Assembly (NCBI GenBank): GCA_038861395.1
Contig: JAWCDE010000005.1
Location: 5,022-69,021, forward strand
Reading direction: 5' to 3'
Source of the DNA: Thermoproteota archaeon
GTDB taxonomy: Archaea > Thermoproteota > EX4484-205 > JAAOZP01
Length of the DNA stretch: 64,000 nucleotides
A program made the translations under genes and the position numbers. This document shows, one piece after another, positions 52,202 through 61,920 of this stretch (the stretch's first letter is position 1; every line of letters starts with the position of its first letter). The notes beneath the pieces are model-generated. The model was not told the DNA's origin. It worked only from the letters and a program-made list of their open reading frames with translations, and made no database searches.

Positions 52202-53479
52202 ATGGGGGTAAATAGAAGCTGTGGGATAGTTATACTTGCGGCATCCATGTTTCCACTACTTATTATAATGCTTTCATGGAATATCGCCATACTGAAAAGT
52301 GCCTTTAATCCTTCAAATACTTATTGGAAACATCCGGAAAAAGCAAGTGGTTATATTGTTGACAGATGCAGTGAGAATATTGTTGCATCTCCATCTGCTG
52401 ATGAGGATAACGAAGTATTATTTGCAAGTCTAGACAATGAAACTGATTACTCTATGATTAAGCCTTGCGAAAAGGATTTTAAAGGACCTGTTGGCTATGT
52501 TCTTGTTTTCAATAGTTTTACAGATGAGGTTCAGTACCGCTACACATATCTCGGAATAGTTCCTGAAGGGTCTAATGCAGATTGCAGTCCTTCCCAATCT
52601 AAAAAGTTCGAGGTCGGCATAGGTGATATGGTTCTATTTTTCATAGATTATGAGGGTAGGCCGCTTGAAAATGTTCACGTAGTTTTAGATGAATGGGGGA
52701 TAGAGGGATATACTGACAAGTCGGGAAGCCTAAGGCTGGAGAAGATGCCGAGGATAAGCTACAGAATTACTGCAGAATGGGTAAGTAAGTACGGTAGTAA
52801 AGCTTTTACAAGAGCATTCGTGAAAGGTGACTCCGTTATAACTATGCCAGTCTACGACGTTACCTTACAATTATTAACTTCAAAAAGTAGTCCGGTGGCT
52901 AATGCTAATGTTTGGCTGGGGAACTTGTACGTGGGTGTTACTAACGGAGAGGGGAGGGTCTTGGTTACCCAAGTTCCAGCAGGCAGCTATGGGGTTTCAG
53001 CAAAGTGGCTTGGCTCAGACCTTATTCTGCAGGATGTGAATGTTACAACCGGTGGCGAGCTGGTCCTAACACCCACCAATGTACATAGTTTAACCGTAAT
53101 GGTCAGGGGAGCTATGGGGCAGGCTCTTGAAGGAGCTAGCGTTACTGTCTGGAAGGATGGTGCCGAACTGTTTAGAAGGATTACGGATAAGAGCGGTAAC
53201 GTGGAGATTGAGCTACCAGACGGAGAATATGTTATCGAGGCTTCTTTCGATCAGTTCCAGAAGAGAACTCTAGTAACGCTCACTGTCGATAGCTTCGTAA
53301 GAATAGATCTGGATGTGTTCACGAAGATGCTCGGCGTCTCCATGACTCTTTCACAAACTCTTCTCCTAATAGCGGCAGTGGTAATTATGATTATTCTTTT
53401 AGCAATAATTGTTCACGAATATCATATTTACAGGAGGAAGAAACTGCCTCAGCTTTTTATAGCTAGGAAGACAGCTTAG
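52202..53479 (+). CDS. Cell-surface protein with repeated carboxypeptidase-regulatory-like beta-sandwiches and C-terminal TM anchor
   Basis: Signal/TM; three units of PL.NA.V...G.TD..G...P.G.Y; C-terminal TM followed by YRRKK. Confidence 0.8.
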   Translation: MGVNRSCGIVILAASMFPLLIIMLSWNIAILKSAFNPSNTYWKHPEKASGYIVDRCSENIVASPSADEDNEVLFASLDNETDYSMIKPCEKDFKGPVGYVLVFNSFTDEVQYRYTYLGIVPEGSNADCSPSQSKKFEVGIGDMVLFFIDYEGRPLENVHVVLDEWGIEGYTDKSGSLRLEKMPRISYRITAEWVSKYGSKAFTRAFVKGDSVITMPVYDVTLQLLTSKSSPVANANVWLGNLYVGVTNGEGRVLVTQVPAGSYGVSAKWLGSDLILQDVNVTTGGELVLTPTNVHSLTVMVRGAMGQALEGASVTVWKDGAELFRRITDKSGNVEIELPDGEYVIEASFDQFQKRTLVTLTVDSFVRIDLDVFTKMLGVSMTLSQTLLLIAAVVIMIILLAIIVHEYHIYRRKKLPQLFIARKTA

Positions 53480-53949: not shown

Positions 53950-54159
53950 GTATACCGACATGTCCTGTACCAAGTCTGTCGCATGTTTAGAAGGCTTAAA
54001 AACATTTCTAACAGTAAAACAACCTCCTTTTTTATAATACTCCGGATGGTCGTGGGGCATCTTGCAAGCATCTTTTTTCGATATTTTATCGTGTCGAAAA
54101 ATGAATAAAAGTACGTTTTGCGAAAAGCATATATTTAACAATCATTAAAACAATATTAG

Positions 54160-54789
54160 ATGGGTAAGAAAAAAGATATAGTTGACAAGCTCGACTTAGA
54201 AATACTCCATATTCTCTCCCGGAATCCTAGGCTTAGCTGTCGGGAAATAGCTAAGCAGCTTGAAGTATCCGACAGGACGGTGGCCCGAAGGGTATCCAGA
54301 ATGGAGAGGGAGGGCATTATACTAGGATATCAGCTTGTTTTAAACGATTATGCTAAAAGCCTCGTTTTCGACACAAGTGATCTGAGCGAGATACGGTTCA
54401 CAGTGGCAGAGTGGTCTAATTTTGAAGAGGCTCTTCGCCAAATGTATTCCACCGCAGCAGATGTCATATTTTTCTACGCTGGAAAGGGGATTGGCAAGTC
54501 TATAATAAGGAGCATGGGTAAGAGCAAGTTTAGTATAGAAGATGCTTTATCCTTCTCTTCTAAAGTGTGTAATATAAGGGGGTGGGGGAATGTTCGCTTC
54601 GATAAGTTGAAAGACAATTCAATAAAGGCTGATCTTAGAGGTCTGAGAATAAACCCTTCTTTCTTCCGGGGAATAATTGCGGGAATGCTTGAGAACATGA
54701 CTGGAGAAGAGCCTGAATCATTATTGTTCACAGAGGAGGATGGTTCACTCATAATAAGACCCTTGGAGGGTTTGAGCCTTGAAGGATAG
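54160..54789 (+). CDS. Lrp/AsnC-type HTH fused to a V4R-like domain
   Basis: DKLDLEIL..L..NPRLS.REIAKQL.VSDRTVARRV..ME.EGII.GY; C-terminal YAGKGIG, RGWG, FFRGIIAG. Confidence 0.8.
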   Translation: MGKKKDIVDKLDLEILHILSRNPRLSCREIAKQLEVSDRTVARRVSRMEREGIILGYQLVLNDYAKSLVFDTSDLSEIRFTVAEWSNFEEALRQMYSTAADVIFFYAGKGIGKSIIRSMGKSKFSIEDALSFSSKVCNIRGWGNVRFDKLKDNSIKADLRGLRINPSFFRGIIAGMLENMTGEEPESLLFTEEDGSLIIRPLEGLSLEG

Positions 54790-55468
54790 AGTGCCCTTTG
54801 GCATAGCGGAGCTCGACAACCTTATTGAAGGAGGATTGCCCAAGGGGGGGCTTATTGTAATCGCGGGCAGTCCGGGAGCTGGTAAAACGATACTCTCAGC
54901 CCAGTTCATCTACAACGGTGCCATGTTGTATAAGGAGAAGGGTGTTTACGTTTGTTTGAGCGAGAGCAAGGAGAATTTTAAGAGCAACATGCTTGGCTTA
55001 GGATGGGACTTTAATAAGCTCGAGGATAAGGGCATAGTCAGAGTAGTAGAGCTCCCCGCGGTGGCAAAGATAAGGGTTGAGGATATGACCGATCTTATAG
55101 TAGAGGAAGCTAAGAGGTTTAAAGCACAGAGACTCGTAGTCGACTCGCTCTCAGCCCTAAACCTTGCACTAGGCAGTAGGGCTGAAGTAAGGGCAGTGAT
55201 AAACCTGATTGCTAGAATGTTGAAGAACGTGGGATGTACAACGCTAATGATCACGGAGAGTCCATGGGGGACTACGGGAATAGGCATGGGTATTGAAGAA
55301 TTCCTAGCTGACGGCATAATACTCATGGAATCTGTTGTCGTAGGTAATAGGCTTGAGAGAAGGCTGATGATACTTAAGATGAGAACCACGAGTCACGACA
55401 CAAGATACTATAGGCTTAACATAGCTAAGGGAACAGGCATTATGCTGAGCCTCTATCCAGAAATGTAA
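54779..55468 (+). CDS. KaiC-like / RAD55-type ATPase (single domain)
   Basis: GIAELD, GSPGAGKT, VVDSLS, EEFLADGII, ILKMRTTSH. Confidence 0.9.
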   Translation: MKDRVPFGIAELDNLIEGGLPKGGLIVIAGSPGAGKTILSAQFIYNGAMLYKEKGVYVCLSESKENFKSNMLGLGWDFNKLEDKGIVRVVELPAVAKIRVEDMTDLIVEEAKRFKAQRLVVDSLSALNLALGSRAEVRAVINLIARMLKNVGCTTLMITESPWGTTGIGMGIEEFLADGIILMESVVVGNRLERRLMILKMRTTSHDTRYYRLNIAKGTGIMLSLYPEM

Positions 55469-55488
55469 TTCTAAGGAGGTGGGTTTAA

Positions 55489-57114
55489 TTGAGCCATGAG
55501 GGAAAGGAGCTCTGGAACAAGTATTGCAGCTTCCTATATGAGGATTTTCAGAAGCAAGTGGAATACAACCGTAAGAAGATGGGCGAATACTTCAAGATGC
55601 TTAAGAATACGCTGCTCCTAGAAGCCTTAAAAGCTAAGGAAGCTGAAAAAATAAAACAGGTTCCTGTCACAACATACGATGATTACTTTTTCTTAAAAGC
55701 TTTCGGAGAAAGAGTGAGAGAACTTGAGGTAACAACTCCTAAGAAGAAGGGTGAAACCTTAGTCGAGTATTACACGCGTATCGGTAGGATAGCAGCTGAA
55801 CCCATTAGAAACTATCTTCCGGGAGAATTCGAATGCTTTGTTAAAACTAGTGGAACTACAGGTCAGAGCAAATGGATAGTGCATACGGAGCTTCTCCGTA
55901 ATATAGCAGCTGATGTTGCAATGACCGTCCTAGTTATAGCTTGCAGCGAACGTGCGGGAGACACGGCCCTCCGCTTGGGAGAAACTGTGCTGAACATAGT
56001 TGCTCCCGCACCCTATGTCTCAGGTTGGAGCCTCTATTATCTCCAGGAGATTAACAAGTTTAAGATATACCCTCCATTTCGAATTACAGATAGAGTATCA
56101 GACATCAGGCGTAGAATGTTGATGATTATGAAGGAGGTGGATAGAATGAAGGGGAAAATAGCTATACTGGCTGCAGTAGCCTCAATGCTCTACCTGCTTA
56201 TAAAGTATATAACGGATAGGTATTCCTTCTATAAGGATTATGCCGAGTCTTTAAACATAGGGTTAACTAAGCTATACGTGTTTTCGAAGCTTATTCAAAC
56301 AAAGCTGTTTTGGGAGCCCAAGGATATAAGAGAGATTTTACCAGCCAAGGGAATAATATGCACAGGCTACGATTCCAAAATATATGATAAGCTTTTTAGA
56401 CGCAATTTCGGAGTTATACCATTAAATATATATGGAAGCAGTGAGTTTATCATCCCAATGTATGGAACAGTTGAGAACAAGTATCAGCTTGTTTTAGATT
56501 TAAGGACTGGATATTTTGAATTTCTTGACGTTGAGAGTGGAGACATATTAGACATCGATGAGCTTAAGAAGGGGCGAAGCTACAGCTTAATCGGAACACC
56601 TTTTGGAAGCAGTTTAGTCAGATACAGAATCGGCGATATCTTTAAGGTAGAGGATTTCAGAGATGATGGGATGCCATTTTTCTCTTTTGAAGGTAGGGAA
56701 GGCAACCATCTGGATGTTTACGGCTACTTTAGGATTACTGAGAGCCTAGCTATAAGGGTTATGACTAAAACTGACTTAATATCTTCTGATAAATGGTGCT
56801 TCGCTAAACTTCTAGATCCTAGTGAACATATATGCGTGCTTATGGAAAAAGAACTAGAAGTTGATGAAGAAACAGCTTCAGAGAGAATATTTAAAACCCT
56901 TCTTGAGGAGAGTGAAGATTTCAGAAACTTTGTGAAGGATTTCAGAATAAGGAACCCCGAGAACATAATAAAGGTTGAGTATTTGAGAAAAGGTGCATTT
57001 AAAAGATATTCTGATTTGCGTTTTAAGATGGGGACGCCGTTTGGTCAGATTAAGCCTCCCAAAATAATACCTACAGAGAAAATGGAGATTTTCGAAACCC
57101 TAAGGAGGATCTGA
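55489..57114 (+). CDS. Gretchen Hagen 3 (GH3 auxin-responsive) family acyl-adenylate / acyl-amido synthetase
   Basis: VPVTTYDDY and the adenylation motifs KTSGTTGQSK, YGSSE, YRIGD; F.FEGR; terminal GQIKPPK; SD AAGGAGGTGG. Confidence 0.85.
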   Translation: MSHEGKELWNKYCSFLYEDFQKQVEYNRKKMGEYFKMLKNTLLLEALKAKEAEKIKQVPVTTYDDYFFLKAFGERVRELEVTTPKKKGETLVEYYTRIGRIAAEPIRNYLPGEFECFVKTSGTTGQSKWIVHTELLRNIAADVAMTVLVIACSERAGDTALRLGETVLNIVAPAPYVSGWSLYYLQEINKFKIYPPFRITDRVSDIRRRMLMIMKEVDRMKGKIAILAAVASMLYLLIKYITDRYSFYKDYAESLNIGLTKLYVFSKLIQTKLFWEPKDIREILPAKGIICTGYDSKIYDKLFRRNFGVIPLNIYGSSEFIIPMYGTVENKYQLVLDLRTGYFEFLDVESGDILDIDELKKGRSYSLIGTPFGSSLVRYRIGDIFKVEDFRDDGMPFFSFEGREGNHLDVYGYFRITESLAIRVMTKTDLISSDKWCFAKLLDPSEHICVLMEKELEVDEETASERIFKTLLEESEDFRNFVKDFRIRNPENIIKVEYLRKGAFKRYSDLRFKMGTPFGQIKPPKIIPTEKMEIFETLRRI

Positions 57115-57115
57115 T

Positions 57116-59221
57116 TTGAGTATTCTACCGTTTCATCCATGGCTTCTACTATATCCGATAACGGCAATAATCGCATTTGTTATATCCTTAAGAATCATAA
57201 GGAGTGGACCTAAAACACTAAGCTCAAAAAACTTCCTATTCTTTACTCTAACTTTATCCTTATGGGAAATATTTGCATTCCTGCACAGGATTGCTCCTGA
57301 CGAGTATTTATCGAAACTTTTCTTTCATATTGGTTCTCTTTTTCTTGTGTTAAATCCTCTCCTTCTACTTATGAGCATACTCTTCCTCTGGAAGGAGGAT
57401 CCTAGATTCCAATTGTTAATGATTCCATCAATCCCACTTTACATATTGCATCTACTCTTTTCAAACATTAAAGTTATTAAAACAACCGAATACGGCTGGT
57501 CTTATACCTTTGAATTAAATATCTTTTCAATAATAAACTATCTCGCCTATTTCCTTTGCCTAATCCTCATATGTCTTTCAATAGTATTTTTAATTACCCG
57601 CGTTAGAAGCAGCATTATACGTAGAAAGTATATCATAATTCTAGTGTACTTCGTCCTTTTTTATGTGTTTGGAGTCTTCGGGTTAAACATATTATTATCC
57701 GAAAATCCTAACATGCCACCGCCGGGAGGAATAAACATTTTCCTGTTCTTTCTAGGTGTGAGTTATGCTTTTTCCTTGAGGGAGAAAGCCTCTTTAAAAC
57801 TTGGAAACAAGAAAATTAAAGATTTGTTGCTTGAACAGTATGCTTCTTTTATTAAGAAATTCATAGAGGTCGCTCCGGGTAAAGAATTGGGGCAGAGCCT
57901 GATTGAACTTGAAAGATACCTTGCTAGAGTCGGGTTGAAAGACATGCTAGAACATAATTCAGAAGGAACACTGATTTTGAAACCCGATATTTTAGAAAAA
58001 GCTAATTTAGTCACAATTATGGAGGGAACCATAAGTTATCTTGAGGATAAACCATGGGCTTTAGAGCTTGTGCATAGCCTTCTACCGGTCTTAAACACTG
58101 TTTATGCGAATCTTGAAAATAAAAACGAGTTTAGAAGAATAATTATCTACCACGAGGACTTTCTTAAGAAGACGGATATGATTTACGCCCTAGCTGGTGG
58201 AGAATTTCTTTCAGAAATCGGGGAGGACAATTCTCTTAAAAATCTTCCTAATTGGCAAGCTTGTCTGAGGCTATTCCGCAGGCTTGTTTCTATGATTCTC
58301 CAAGATTTCTACAATATTGTTGGAGACGCGATAGAAAGTAAAATCCTGTCTTTCAGCCTTCTAAACCGCTTGAAAATTTCTAGGCTCGGCCAGGTGGAAA
58401 TAGAGGGGGTTGAAGAAGCCATTAAAAATATGCCGCAGAATGAAAGGATTCCTGCCTTACTTGATAACTTTATCCCACTCATAGCTTGGATGATTGAAGA
58501 AATTTATAAAAAAATAGGCGGGGATATAGAAGATCTTATTAAGCGTCTGAGAATTGCGTTAAAGCTCGACATGGACGTAGCTATTAAAACCATGATTTAC
58601 AGTAATCTAGTAGAATCATTATCAGGTAGGATTCCATCCGAATACGTAAGTATGCTAAAACTTGCTGAAGGCTTTACTCTTAAAGACCTGACAAAATTCT
58701 CCTCCAAGATTAATCTTGATCACAACGAACTCATAGGTAAGGGCATACTTCTGGAATTCGAACCTAAAAGCACATATCTGGAATATATTAGGGATTATGT
58801 GGTTGAGGCATTGGCTCACGGTGGGCTGAGCATTGTCCTAACGAGAAAGGGTAGCTCCCTACAAGATAAGCTGCAAGATCTGAGAAGTATTAGATTCATA
58901 CATCCCTCTCTAATGACCCTGCGTACTACATCAATATCCGATTTCGAGACTCATGTCCCTCTTCAGGATGTGGTCCAGATCCTAGAATCCTTAGGGAGAA
59001 GCGTTAAATCCTCGTCATCTCCAGTGTTTATAGTGTTCGACGGTTTAACGGATTTCGTAACGCAACATGGCTTCGAAAAGACTTACAAACTCATCCGGAG
59101 TATGCTTGAATTAGCTCCTTCTAAGGTGTCCCTACTTGTTCCATTAAACATTAAAGCTTGGGGCGAGAACGTTAAATCCGCCTTGGAAGAGCTTCTGAAT
59201 ATAACTATTCATGCAGAGTAA
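57116..59221 (+). CDS. 7TM receptor-like protein (HisKA_7TM-like N-terminus) with a helical middle region and DUF835-like inactive KaiC-type C-terminal domain
   Basis: Seven hydrophobic helices in roughly the first 220 aa with an EYGWSY loop; C-terminus ILLEFEP...IVFDGLTDFV..HGFEKTYKLI, lacking Walker A; no kinase motifs. Confidence 0.7.
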   Translation: MSILPFHPWLLLYPITAIIAFVISLRIIRSGPKTLSSKNFLFFTLTLSLWEIFAFLHRIAPDEYLSKLFFHIGSLFLVLNPLLLLMSILFLWKEDPRFQLLMIPSIPLYILHLLFSNIKVIKTTEYGWSYTFELNIFSIINYLAYFLCLILICLSIVFLITRVRSSIIRRKYIIILVYFVLFYVFGVFGLNILLSENPNMPPPGGINIFLFFLGVSYAFSLREKASLKLGNKKIKDLLLEQYASFIKKFIEVAPGKELGQSLIELERYLARVGLKDMLEHNSEGTLILKPDILEKANLVTIMEGTISYLEDKPWALELVHSLLPVLNTVYANLENKNEFRRIIIYHEDFLKKTDMIYALAGGEFLSEIGEDNSLKNLPNWQACLRLFRRLVSMILQDFYNIVGDAIESKILSFSLLNRLKISRLGQVEIEGVEEAIKNMPQNERIPALLDNFIPLIAWMIEEIYKKIGGDIEDLIKRLRIALKLDMDVAIKTMIYSNLVESLSGRIPSEYVSMLKLAEGFTLKDLTKFSSKINLDHNELIGKGILLEFEPKSTYLEYIRDYVVEALAHGGLSIVLTRKGSSLQDKLQDLRSIRFIHPSLMTLRTTSISDFETHVPLQDVVQILESLGRSVKSSSSPVFIVFDGLTDFVTQHGFEKTYKLIRSMLELAPSKVSLLVPLNIKAWGENVKSALEELLNITIHAE

Positions 59222-59223
59222 TG

Positions 59224-59655
59224 TTAAACTGATTTTTTAGACTTAACTATATGGATCACCCTGATTTTCCTCCTTCTCAAATAGGATGCTATAAACCTTC
59301 TGTGACAATACTTAGGTTCCGTTTCCAGGCACATTATGCAAGTCCTATTTTTTTCAGCAATTTTCAAGAGCTTTTCAACCCCTTTCTTAAAACTACTTGT
59401 TTCCATATACTTTTCATAACCTTCACGACGATACCCGCCTAACTCCTCTCCAAGCCAGAAATAGGAAATCCCTTTTTTCGGAAGCCATTGCCCCATATTC
59501 TCCCTACAGAAGTGTTCAAGCCTGGACTTTGGAAACCTGCGAACATCTACCAGTATCTTAATCCGATATTTTCTCAACAATCCTAGGAATTCTTCTTTCG
59601 AAAGGCTTCCATGACCTATTGTCCAAAGCATCGTCTTACTCTTATGCATGTTCAA
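59224..59655 (-). CDS. DUF488 family protein
   Basis: WTIGHG, LVDVRRFP.S, ELGGYR, IMCLE....CHRRFIA. Confidence 0.9.
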   Translation of the reverse strand: MNMHKSKTMLWTIGHGSLSKEEFLGLLRKYRIKILVDVRRFPKSRLEHFCRENMGQWLPKKGISYFWLGEELGGYRREGYEKYMETSSFKKGVEKLLKIAEKNRTCIMCLETEPKYCHRRFIASYLRRRKIRVIHIVKSKKSV

Positions 59656-59843: not shown

Positions 59844-60659
59844 TTGAAAATGACCTCGAGTAATCCTATTGAAATATGTTATCCTAAAGAAATAATGTGT
59901 TCTGAGCATCTTCCTGGAGGAAGGCTTGTCGAGTTCTTCGTAAGACTTCGTAGAGAAGCTGAGCCGGAATTCTTCAAAGTTTTTAAAATCAGTATGAAGA
60001 ATATCGTAGAACTATCCGGCTTTTACGATGCAGATATAGAGAAAAATGAGATTTCTATGGGTTTTTTTATAGATATTTCTCATCTAAAAGAAAGCGTTCC
60101 GGAGAAAATAGCTGAGGAGTTTAAAAAGATAGAGGGCGTTTTGGAAGTAAGGTTTTCGCAAAGAATGTTTAAAGACCTTATCATAGATGAGCTTTTCTTC
60201 CCGTTAATGGTCGGCGGTGAGAGAAGCTTCACCATCAGAGTCGAGAGCTTTGGAGTACTACTGAAGAGACTCTACGAGAAGTTCGGAACAGGAGCTGCAG
60301 TAATACTCTATGAAATGGGTATGTCTCTGGGAGAGAGTAAAGTCGAGAGCGTGATTAAAAAGTATAAGGTAGATAAGCATACCGCGTTAAAAATCATACT
60401 GGCTGAGCGCGCAGCCAAAGGGTGGTGTATTGCGGAGGCTGAAGAATCTGACAGTAGGAGGGCGATAATAGTTGTTCGAGAGCTGTTTGAATGCCTGCCC
60501 TTCAAGGATAAGCAGGAGAAGCCTGTAAGCCAGCTTTTCAGAGGGTATCTGGCAGGAGTTTTCCAAAAGCTATATGGCAAAAGCTTTACAGTGTCTGAAG
60601 TGGAATGCATTGCTAAAGGAGATAGCGTTTGCAAGTTCTTGGTAGAAATCGCTAAATAA
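59844..60659 (+). CDS. ACT-like + V4R domain ligand-binding protein
   Basis: KIEGVLEV at the end of an ACT-like unit; LYEMG...G, AKGW, ELFEC, FRGYLAG, EVECIAKGDSVCKF. Confidence 0.8.
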   Translation: MKMTSSNPIEICYPKEIMCSEHLPGGRLVEFFVRLRREAEPEFFKVFKISMKNIVELSGFYDADIEKNEISMGFFIDISHLKESVPEKIAEEFKKIEGVLEVRFSQRMFKDLIIDELFFPLMVGGERSFTIRVESFGVLLKRLYEKFGTGAAVILYEMGMSLGESKVESVIKKYKVDKHTALKIILAERAAKGWCIAEAEESDSRRAIIVVRELFECLPFKDKQEKPVSQLFRGYLAGVFQKLYGKSFTVSEVECIAKGDSVCKFLVEIAK

Positions 60660-60882: not shown

Positions 60883-61920
60883 ATGATCCCTAGTCTGAAC
60901 CCTCCCGAATACGTGACGTGGCTGCTTACTTCTAGATGTAACCTTAGGTGTGAGCATTGCTACGCTTCCTCCCGCCCCTGGTACGGCGAGCTTGCTGAGG
61001 AGAGAGTGTTGAAAATAGTTGAAGAAGCATGTGAAATGGGTGTTGAAAACCTTCATTTAACCGGTGGAGAACCACTGCTGAGAAGGGATATTCTTAAAAT
61101 ACTCGAGGCTGCAAGCAGGGATATAAAAGCCTCGCTTTTCACAAACCTTAAGGCAATTAATAGGGATAAGGCTAGGAGGCTGAGCTCGCTAGGAGTTCAA
61201 GTCTTCACAAGCGTAGAGGGCGCTGTTAAGAAGACTCACGAAGCTATCCGCGGCCCAGGTTCTTGGAGTCTTTTAATGCGCGGCACAAGTATCCTCAGAG
61301 AGGAGGAGGTCAGTTTCACACCAATATTCTCGATCTCGCGTTTAAACTTCAGGGAGGCTGGGGAATTCGTGCGCCTAGCGGAGCGTCTGGGGGCTTACTC
61401 AGCCGTGCTTCTACCAGTAATGCCCTTCGGGAGAGCGGAATCAAAGGATTTCAGCGCCGACCCCTACACATGTACAAAAGCCATAGACTTGGCTGAGGAG
61501 GTTGCTGAAGAACTCGGCTTTAAAATTGTATTATGGTGCATGCCTTTCGCTAGCCTGTTAGTAAAATCACGCTACGTCTCGTGGGATTCCTGCAAGTCTG
61601 AGAGAAACATGGATATCGGGCCTGACGGAGAGGTTCTTCTCTGCGACACCTTGGACATGCCTGTCTCCAACATCAAGACTAAGAGCCTGAGAGAAGCCTG
61701 GTTTGAATTGAATTCAAACAGCCTCTTCATCGAAATAATGAGCAACAACCCTTGCCCAGACTGTCCTGCAAGCAATAGCTGTAAAGGAGGGTGCTACGCC
61801 CGGTCGTATAAGAAATACGGTTCATTCAACAACCCGGACCCCTTATGTCCTAGGGTTTTAGAAGAATGCTTAAATCCGCCTATTAATATTAAAGGAAAGG
61901 AAGATGTAAAAAAGAAATAA
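60883..61920 (+). CDS. Radical SAM / SPASM domain protein
   Basis: CNLRCEHC, TGGEPL, H..IRG; SPASM C...IGPDGEVLLC...CPDC....CKGGC...DPLC. Confidence 0.92.
   Translation: MIPSLNPPEYVTWLLTSRCNLRCEHCYASSRPWYGELAEERVLKIVEEACEMGVENLHLTGGEPLLRRDILKILEAASRDIKASLFTNLKAINRDKARRLSSLGVQVFTSVEGAVKKTHEAIRGPGSWSLLMRGTSILREEEVSFTPIFSISRLNFREAGEFVRLAERLGAYSAVLLPVMPFGRAESKDFSADPYTCTKAIDLAEEVAEELGFKIVLWCMPFASLLVKSRYVSWDSCKSERNMDIGPDGEVLLCDTLDMPVSNIKTKSLREAWFELNSNSLFIEIMSNNPCPDCPASNSCKGGCYARSYKKYGSFNNPDPLCPRVLEECLNPPINIKGKEDVKKK

Follow-up and report, generated by a model that had tools for sequence, protein, structure and literature searches.

A GH3-family enzyme gene and a seven-transmembrane sensor gene form a conserved pair in an archaeal KaiC operon and in bacteria

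The window analyzed here is a 64,000-nucleotide stretch of DNA from a Thermoproteota archaeon (GTDB lineage EX4484-205; JAAOZP01; GenBank assembly GCA_038861395.1, contig JAWCDE010000005.1, positions 5,022 to 69,021 of the forward strand). At positions 54160-59221 on its + strand lie four genes, for a DNA-binding regulator, a KaiC-like ATPase, a predicted GH3-family acyl-acid amido synthetase and a seven-transmembrane (7TM) sensor. The last two are the conserved core of the locus: the GH3-like enzyme and the sensor of the HisKA_7TM type are functionally tied, across archaeal phyla and in bacteria. The features of the locus are as follows:

54128-54138 (+): AT-rich TATA-like element, a possible archaeal promoter read from the sequence, 22-32 nt before the first ATG
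54160-54789 (+), 209 amino acids (aa): transcription regulator with an AsnC/Lrp-type winged helix-turn-helix (HTH; aa 9-54) and a degenerate V4R-like domain (aa ~67-205), by Pfam and hhalign
54779-55468 (+), 229 aa: single-domain KaiC-like ATPase of the RecA superfamily (Pfam KaiC, PF06745, 196.1 bits), with a GGAGG Shine-Dalgarno sequence before a TTG start
55489-57114 (+), 541 aa: predicted GH3-family ATP-dependent acyl-acid amido synthetase (adenylating enzyme), by GH3_M (40 bits), profile, fold and catalytic columns
57116-59221 (+), 701 aa: the sensor, in the three parts below
57116-57781 (+): N-terminal 7TM domain (aa 1-222), HisKA_7TM-like, from the model and a sub-threshold PF16927 match
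57824-58660 (+): helical cytoplasmic middle domain (aa 237-515), from the secondary structure of the model
58661-59221 (+): C-terminal DUF835-like domain with a RecA/KaiC fold and no P-loop, by hhalign and Foldseek

Of the four open reading frames (ORFs), the first two overlap by 11 bp, the second and third are 20 bp apart and the third and fourth 1 bp, and a GGAGG-type Shine-Dalgarno sequence lies ahead of the TTG start of each of the three downstream genes. The unit ends at 59221, because the DUF488 gene that follows directly (59224-59655) is on the other strand. The four genes are one tightly coupled operon, as had been claimed in the first-pass annotation of this DNA, and the coordinates, strand and all three junctions given there were borne out. 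DNA of the window is contained in sequencing runs labelled as hot-springs metagenomes. One metatranscriptomic library yielded three short contigs, 98-99% identical to the HTH and KaiC genes, one of which crosses the junction between the two; as such libraries can contain DNA, these contigs are a weak hint of expression. No contig from the same library fell on the GH3 or sensor genes, which says nothing about whether these genes are silent.

The adenylation motifs of GH3 enzymes are [ST][ST]G[ST]xGxxK (motif 1), YGxxE (motif 2) and YxxGD (motif 3). All three had been reported as intact in the enzyme of the window and were found there, as TSGTTGQSK at residue 120, YGSSE at residue 315 and YRIGD at residue 379. 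When a profile built from 20 family members (alignment A1) was compared with solved structures, ten plant GH3 sequences were matched at E-values of 3e-12 to 7e-8, over a span that includes YGxxE, YxxGD and the lysine of the C-terminal GQxKxP motif; the first match outside the GH3 family was ApnA A1, at E 0.068. The AlphaFold model of the enzyme has a predicted local distance difference test (pLDDT) score of 90.4, and its top Foldseek matches were 4epl, 6e1q and 9fwd (E about 1e-18 to 2e-18), with JAR1, GH3.15, GH3.6, GH3.5 and PBS3 as the best fold matches. PaaK-type ligases ranked next, at E about 1e-16 to 2e-16, so the margin on fold is modest. No NCBIfam model matched the enzyme or the sensor, and relatives of the enzyme carry the NCBI name 'GH3 auxin-responsive promoter family protein'.

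The model of the sensor (pLDDT 88) comprises seven transmembrane helices (residues 8-220; a beta-hairpin occupies 118-132), a helical middle region at 237-515 and a C-terminal alpha/beta domain at 543-699. As the helices number seven and the output domains are cytoplasmic, the N-terminus is placed outside; in the model the hairpin (YGW) faces outward and there is almost no extramembrane sensing surface. Alignment of the 7TM part to bundles of the G-protein-coupled receptor (GPCR) type with VIA-align gave Z-scores of 14-17.5 and a root-mean-square deviation of about 3-3.8 Å over ~200-220 residues, the run on the whole 701-aa model having effectively covered residues 1-222. The modelled domain has a GPCR-like helix arrangement; these scores are barely above the level of any helical bundle, and homology is not claimed. 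The residues common to the 7TM domains of archaeal and bacterial partners are F40, W50, R58, G126, P200 and A217. R58, the hairpin residue G126 and P200 would lie at or near the outer face, where, speculatively, a conserved arginine could suit a carboxylate head group.

Beyond the membrane domain, the first part of the middle region is common to all archaeal-type partners (phmmer, TM7_M). No Pfam match was found for this region, and an Atlas search yielded nothing usable, its best structural row being a DUF835 cluster at a TM-score of 0.44. The C-terminal domain (alignment A5) aligned with true DUF835 domains (alignment A7) at a probability of 95.2% and E 2.8e-8 in hhalign, and true DUF835 domains hold the same position in other partners. 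Its best Foldseek matches were the KaiC-like protein PH0284 (2dr3), SSO2452 and Elp456; the fold also matches 2w0m, Elp4/5/6 and KaiC, with a VIA Z-score of 13.8 for Elp456. The segment LLEFEPKSTY stands where a Walker A motif would be expected. By sequence and model, the C-terminus is a DUF835-like and apparently inactivated KaiC-like domain, and is not a DUF835 member by the Pfam rule. DUF835 is labelled 'iKaiC' in the accessible text of PMC5847659, in agreement with a KaiC-like fold that has lost its P-loop.

The enzyme-sensor arrangement was compared at several evolutionary depths. Among 41 related genomes, a GH3-like gene was present in 15, including the window's own, 13 of the 16 other genomes of the genus and one of the 24 more distant genomes. 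Within the genus (14 loci in 13 genomes), the sensor gene directly follows the enzyme gene in 14/14 loci, a KaiC gene directly precedes it in 13/13 loci with upstream sequence, and all four genes are complete in 11 loci; the sensor falls to 26-29% identity in half of the loci. Synteny within the genus proves little by itself, as an unrelated upstream gene is also syntenic. One genome of the genus (G015) holds two copies of the operon, on contigs C66 and C90 (L018 and L015), with enzymes 61-63% identical to that of the window; this may reflect either true duplication or a mixed bin.

The comparison was extended by scanning species-representative genomes; of the 460 stretches with relatives, the best 78 loci were retained. 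The GH3 tree built from these loci has 75 rows, four loci with cut or uncalled genes having been omitted, and comprises two deep clades, each with 100% support in the Shimodaira-Hasegawa-like approximate likelihood ratio test (SH-aLRT). The archaeal-type clade is 35-47% identical to the window's enzyme, save one locus of the same genus at 82%, and its members come from Hadarchaeota, Bathyarchaeia, Thermoplasmata, Nitrososphaeria, Hydrothermarchaeota and Brockarchaeota and from a few contigs binned as bacteria. The bacterial clade is about 24% identical and comes from Dehalococcoidia, other Chloroflexota and Spirochaetota. The catalytic columns were scored in 72 sequences (44 archaeal-type, 28 distant): K128 is present in 44/44 and 27/28, E319 in 42/44 and 28/28, R378 and Y379 in all, D383 in 43/44 and 27/28, and K522 in 43/44 and 28/28. 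These columns are kept in both clades, which therefore points to an active enzyme under selection.

The sensor gene is adjacent to the enzyme gene in 42 of the 49 archaeal-type loci, and the figure is 32/32 among loci with 1.5 kb or more on each side. Of the seven loci that deviate, six are cut off by a contig end on the side in question, and in the seventh (L037) the sensor lies four genes off. In the bacterial clade the two are adjacent in 25/29 loci and within three genes of each other in 29/29. The background is low: of 672 ORFs lying more than three genes from the enzyme, 2 carry the 7TM domain. Distances between the two genes are mostly -8 to +12 nt. Pfam gives independent support, as 20 of 22 bacterial sensor candidates exceed the HisKA_7TM cut-off (35-66 bits), and the single GH3_M gene of the window's 1.46-Mb genome adjoins the single HisKA_7TM-like gene. 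Conservation of the neighborhood had been proposed as a check on the first-pass annotation, and the linkage of GH3 with 7TM holds across archaeal phyla and in bacteria. The annotation had described a circuit of four genes; the enzyme and 7TM sensor are a conserved unit, but the KaiC and HTH genes are not a fixed part of it, being one of at least four interchangeable outputs.

The pair is sparsely distributed. In an even sample of the phylum the enzyme was found in 17 of 301 genomes and 4 of 123 genera, with 14 of the 17 in the genus of the window. Archaeal-type pairs with DUF835 also occur on contigs binned as Dehalococcoidales, Dehalococcoidia, Neomarinimicrobiota and Spirochaetales (L038, L052, L062 and L064). 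Downstream of the pair in L038 come a HisKA_3 kinase of bacterial type and a LuxR-type regulator (REC-GerE), a layout that suggests transfer between domains of life and not mis-binning. These observations suggest that GH3 and 7TM form a mobile accessory module that has crossed domains.

The outputs attached to the sensor differ between lineages. HisKA and HATPase_c domains end the sensor in 10 archaeal-type loci (Bathyarchaeia) and 17 bacterial loci; the bacterial partners are of GAF-HisKA-HATPase composition, some partners of the histidine-kinase type are hybrid kinases, and OmpR-type regulators follow in five. HD_5 domains of the HD-GYP type are found in 3 bacterial loci. Clear DUF835 domains (37-90 bits) end the sensor in 12 loci, several of which continue with PAS histidine kinases and response regulators, and DUF835-like ends of the window type are found in 14 loci. 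Two of the output labels are weaker than the rest, that of L075 because its DUF835 match is sub-threshold and that of L029 because it was assigned from the orthologous L028. When mapped onto the GH3 tree, the labels require at least six changes, where the theoretical minimum is three, and none of 200 shuffles gave a number as low. The absence of a histidine kinase had been presented as a feature of the circuit; this is correct locally but fails as a defining trait, as the orthologous modules of Bathyarchaeia and bacteria use histidine kinases. The input domain is constant whatever the output, and the enzyme would therefore act at the signal input.

In the Hadarchaeum loci L028, L029 and L063 the sensor is split into a 7TM gene of 246-273 aa and a DUF835 gene of 295 aa, a second DUF835 protein of 620-660 aa follows (in L063 together with a MEDS+PadR regulator), and a divergent KaiC of 27-30% identity lies upstream. 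In the Thermoplasmatota loci L059 and L065, two or three paralogous 7TM sensors surround one GH3-like gene and are followed by PAS histidine kinases.

KaiC is directly upstream of the enzyme gene in 12/12 testable loci in which the sensor has the window-type C-terminal domain; elsewhere it holds this position only in the Hadarchaeum loci, which have separate DUF835 genes. The association of KaiC with DUF835 that had been proposed from the window is upheld by this co-occurrence. The full order of four genes, including the AsnC-HTH/V4R protein, is not confined to the genus, as it recurs in L031 from Bathyarchaeia and in the Nitrososphaeria loci L056 and L060. In the window's KaiC-like protein, Walker A (GSPGAGKT), Walker B (LVVDS) and the catalytic glutamate E62 are invariant in 12 orthologs, and the ATPase is predicted to be active. 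The Pfam score and intact motifs leave its description as a single-domain KaiC-like ATPase clear. The circadian clock KaiC, a double-domain protein, was considered and rejected: the window's protein has 229 aa and one domain, and scores 142.5 against NF006799 (cut-off 408) and 108.9 against TIGR02655 (cut-off 546).

The regulator encoded by the first gene had been described as an Lrp-type HTH with a V4R-like domain. The HTH was recovered by Pfam (HTH_24 at 55.2 bits, HTH_AsnC-type at 49.3 bits). No Pfam match to V4R (PF02830) was obtained at E <= 0.01, but profile comparison and one ortholog support that half of the description. In hhalign, the alignment of 14 orthologs (A3) matched that of a neighboring V4R protein (A4) at 96.3% and E 1.7e-9 over 133 columns, a score raised by the inclusion in A3 of the ortholog from L031, which itself reaches 46.5 bits against V4R (cut-off 31). 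The window's domain has an internal deletion and is without the C-terminal cysteine pair of the neighboring V4R protein, while GWG and RG are invariant among the orthologs; 'degenerate V4R-like' is an apt term for what its sequence indicates. A full Lrp/AsnC regulator was also considered. The AsnC-type HTH is present, but there was no match to the RAM (AsnC_trans_reg) domain in this gene, the NCBIfam equivalogs were far under their cut-offs, and the C-terminal half is V4R-like.

It is judged a little better than evenly probable that the 7TM domain reads an amphipathic ligand (acyl-amido or carboxylate) whose level is set by the enzyme, and that the DUF835-like domain, KaiC and the HTH-V4R-like regulator relay the reading to transcription. 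In this scheme the cytoplasmic GH3-like enzyme would activate a carboxylic acid as its adenylate at the expense of ATP and then couple it to an amine. The ligand of the 7TM domain, read within the membrane or at its outer face, would be either what the enzyme makes or what it consumes, and would be a carboxylate of amphipathic and probably lipid-like character; the enzyme would set the amount of this ligand either by synthesis, as an autoinducer-type synthase, or by inactivation. The DUF835-like end of the sensor, which lacks a P-loop, would pass the state of the receptor to the co-encoded active KaiC ATPase, which in turn would control the AsnC-HTH/V4R-like regulator and hence transcription. 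How the ligand relates to enzyme and sensor, which way the relay runs and every physical contact within the module are inferred. The first-pass annotation had proposed an N-acyl-amino-acid-type signal, made or inactivated by the enzyme and sensed through the 7TM or V4R domain; such a signal and its binding are hypothetical, and a role similar to quorum sensing is plausible. A broader proposal, possible but doubtful, is that GH3-type synthetases and HisKA_7TM receptors constitute an unrecognized class of autoinducer system for signalling between cells in Archaea and Bacteria, in which a signal resembling an N-acyl- or prenyl-amino acid is read in the membrane by a GPCR-like 7TM domain. Were this so, the receptor would be wired according to lineage to histidine kinases, to cyclic di-GMP phosphodiesterases or, in archaea, to the KaiC hub, and the class would parallel both the jasmonoyl-isoleucine and auxin-conjugate chemistry of plants and the sensing of lipids by animal GPCRs.

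Genes of possible tailoring enzymes accompany the pair. A class I S-adenosylmethionine (SAM) methyltransferase gene (Methyltransf_11) is directly upstream of the GH3-like gene in L080, L083, L088, L094, L096, L097, L099 and L103, and a PEMT-like membrane methyltransferase gene holds this position in the Spirochaetota loci L076 and L090; a methyltransferase upstream of the bacterial-clade enzyme is suggestive of a small-molecule pathway in two steps. Between enzyme and sensor, L037 (1931-3124) encodes a fusion of an ICMT/PEMT-like domain with a metallo-beta-lactamase. UbiA prenyltransferase genes lie beside the pair in two phyla (L035:8639-9610, L039:11127-12011 and L037:3253-4140), and class I/II aminotransferase genes do so in L035 and L062. 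Separately, a gene of the ThiF family (E1-like adenylating) adjoins the GH3-like gene in L081 (9161-9934) and L101 (3354-4175), and the GH3-like ORF of L101 has 746 aa, with an N-terminal extension of ~280 aa.

Several points weigh against the ligand scheme or the assignments on which it draws. Adjacency was counted by scoring every ORF with a hidden Markov model of the 7TM domain built from the partner proteins themselves, and among the 42 archaeal-type partners HisKA_7TM is over its Pfam cut-off in 3 and just under it in 8. Of 14 control genomes, those of Thermus, Haloferax and Methanosarcina encode HisKA_7TM but gave no match to GH3_M, which turned up solely in Bacteroides thetaiotaomicron. 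Each family extends beyond the pairing, and the 7TM domain has no general need of the enzyme. All data come from metagenome-assembled genomes read with a simple ORF caller, and the species are related and non-independent. No exporter is encoded in the operon.

The domain names given in the first-pass annotation were likewise only partly matched by Pfam. In the enzyme, GH3_M passes, but the N-terminal GH3 model (19.4 bits) and GH3_C (20.5 bits) are under the cut-off of 23.6, and the GH3 identity of the remainder is carried by profile and fold. The seven helices of the sensor are present in the model, but HisKA_7TM reaches 25 bits in the window against a cut-off of 28.6; orthologous partners from other loci pass it at 29.5, 30.8 and 30.4 bits, as do the bacterial partners (35-66 bits). 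The DUF835-like end fails the cut-off of PF05763 (17.1 against 33.1 bits), but is homologous to true DUF835 domains by profile and has a RecA-like fold with no P-loop. Sequence profiles compared with KaiC gave 5% for the DUF835-like domain and 0.4% for true DUF835, so that the link to KaiC rests on fold only.

The persistence of the pair might also reflect contact between the proteins themselves. The GH3-like protein could dock on the sensor as a cytoplasmic co-sensor, a 'trigger enzyme' for the supply of acid, amine and ATP, or could modify the sensor covalently in adaptation, a diffusible ligand playing no part. In most loci the two genes overlap or lie a few nucleotides apart (1 bp in the window), a spacing typical of proteins made in a fixed ratio; the pair is retained whatever the output; and the helical middle domain that follows the 7TM part is conserved in all archaeal-type partners. 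The residues shared by archaeal and bacterial partners, however, include no cytoplasmic residue able to act as an acceptor, and a GAF domain replaces the archaeal middle domain in bacteria, so that no common cytoplasmic docking domain is evident. The co-occurring methyltransferase and prenyltransferase genes, moreover, point to small-molecule chemistry, and coupling at the protein level is considered rather unlikely. The same membrane-embedded PEMT/ICMT-like methyltransferases and UbiA prenyltransferases, found in some loci, would fit a role in membrane-lipid homeostasis, in which the enzyme N-acylates an amino acid to an aminolipid-type component and the 7TM domain, nearly devoid of extramembrane sensing surface, senses the condition of the membrane and adjusts this synthesis accordingly. 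A precedent is OlsH, a bacterial GH3-like enzyme described in the accessible text of PMC12493201 as making N-acyl-ornithine from free fatty acid, ornithine and ATP. No acyltransferase of the OlsI type was found among the neighboring genes scanned, however, and the patchy spread noted above (17/301 genomes, 4/123 genera) fits an accessory signalling function better than a core lipid pathway; lipid homeostasis is considered improbable.

The enzyme might instead be merely a gene that the sensor regulates, for example a detoxifying conjugase, with the sensor reading an unrelated cue. Sensors are often encoded beside the genes that they control, and plant GH3 enzymes inactivate acids by conjugation. 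Against this, the same pair is accompanied by non-transcriptional outputs (HD-GYP, or DUF835 alone), the enzyme gene lies upstream in the sensor's own operon and not in a separate target operon, and the link persists down to ~24% identity in two domains of life. A regulator-target arrangement is thus slightly more improbable still. Chance synteny of four functionally unlinked genes is highly improbable: the unrelated CarboxypepD_reg gene upstream is likewise syntenic within the genus, but adjacency of the pair extends across phyla and domains against a background of 2/672, and all three internal junctions are coupled through Shine-Dalgarno sequences.

The ligand scheme, in which the enzyme sets what the 7TM domain reads, draws on families that are known separately. 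The plant GH3 enzymes JAR1/GH3.11, PBS3/GH3.12 and GH3.5/GH3.6 share the fold, the ATP-dependent adenylation motifs and the GQxKxP lysine with the enzyme of the window, which differs in being only about 16-18% identical, in its shorter length (541 aa), in the sub-threshold Pfam models for its N- and C-terminal parts and in its location in an operon with a membrane sensor. OlsH, compared here by its description in the accessible text of PMC12493201, is prokaryotic like the present family and joins a free acid to an amino acid with ATP; its partner there is the O-acyltransferase OlsI, where the partner of the window's enzyme is a 7TM sensor, and the words sensor, histidine kinase and two-component do not occur in that text. 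KaiC-centered archaeal signalling (DUF835, MEDS) likewise combines components found in the window: an active single-domain KaiC, a KaiC-like domain with no P-loop on the sensor and an HTH regulator. As described in the accessible text of PMC5847659, that scheme lacks GH3 and has no enzyme partner on the input side, whereas the window has one. HisKA_7TM sensor histidine kinases have a 7TM input domain like that of the window's sensor, whose divergent copy (25 bits) is followed by a DUF835-like end instead of a kinase. In the parts of PMC5847659 and PMC6944256 that were accessible, HisKA_7TM is given as a sensor domain only and its ligand is not named.

Pairs of an enzyme and a receptor are a known kind of signalling system. 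In LuxM/LuxN, CqsA/CqsS and AinS/AinR, the enzyme that makes a hydrophobic signal is encoded beside a polytopic sensor kinase with no large external domain. The present candidate likewise has its enzyme gene adjacent to a membrane sensor gene, but the GH3 and HisKA_7TM families differ from the LuxM- or CqsA-type enzymes and their receptors. The quorum-sensing two-component system of Haloferax was considered as the same system and rejected, as it includes a KaiC-like protein but, in the accessible text of PMC13464002, has no GH3 and no 7TM sensor. The literature consulted, mostly the openings of abstracts, contained no paper linking a prokaryotic GH3 to a sensor; an earlier mention in the 2017 KaiC-hub paper is possible. 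The components belong to known families, and it may be that the pairing of GH3 with HisKA_7TM is, as it appears, undescribed.

Sensor inputs in archaea are poorly known, and the KaiC/DUF835 network is a prediction with no known inputs. A conserved enzyme partner offers a biochemical handle, as the product of the enzyme should indicate the likely ligand of the sensor. The hypothesis is testable in standard two-component assays, because the same pair is wired to ordinary bacterial histidine kinases, and what is learned there could afterwards be applied to the KaiC route of archaea. Should the product be released, the module would represent a new signalling chemistry in prokaryotes and would be among very few candidate synthase/receptor systems in archaea.

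The genes that flank the operon have their own patterns of retention. Upstream, at 52202-53479 (+), is a gene for a CarboxypepD_reg-like repeat protein that is syntenic throughout the genus. The DUF488 gene downstream (59224-59655, -) is convergent with the sensor gene and is kept in a close subclade of the genus. It is followed at 59844-60659 (+) by a gene for a true V4R protein of 271 aa (46 bits), which resembles MsvR weakly (38.7 bits, far under the cut-off of 220), and at 60883-61920 (+) by a gene for a radical SAM/SPASM enzyme. These last two genes are kept only in the closest relatives (L014, L016 and L017).

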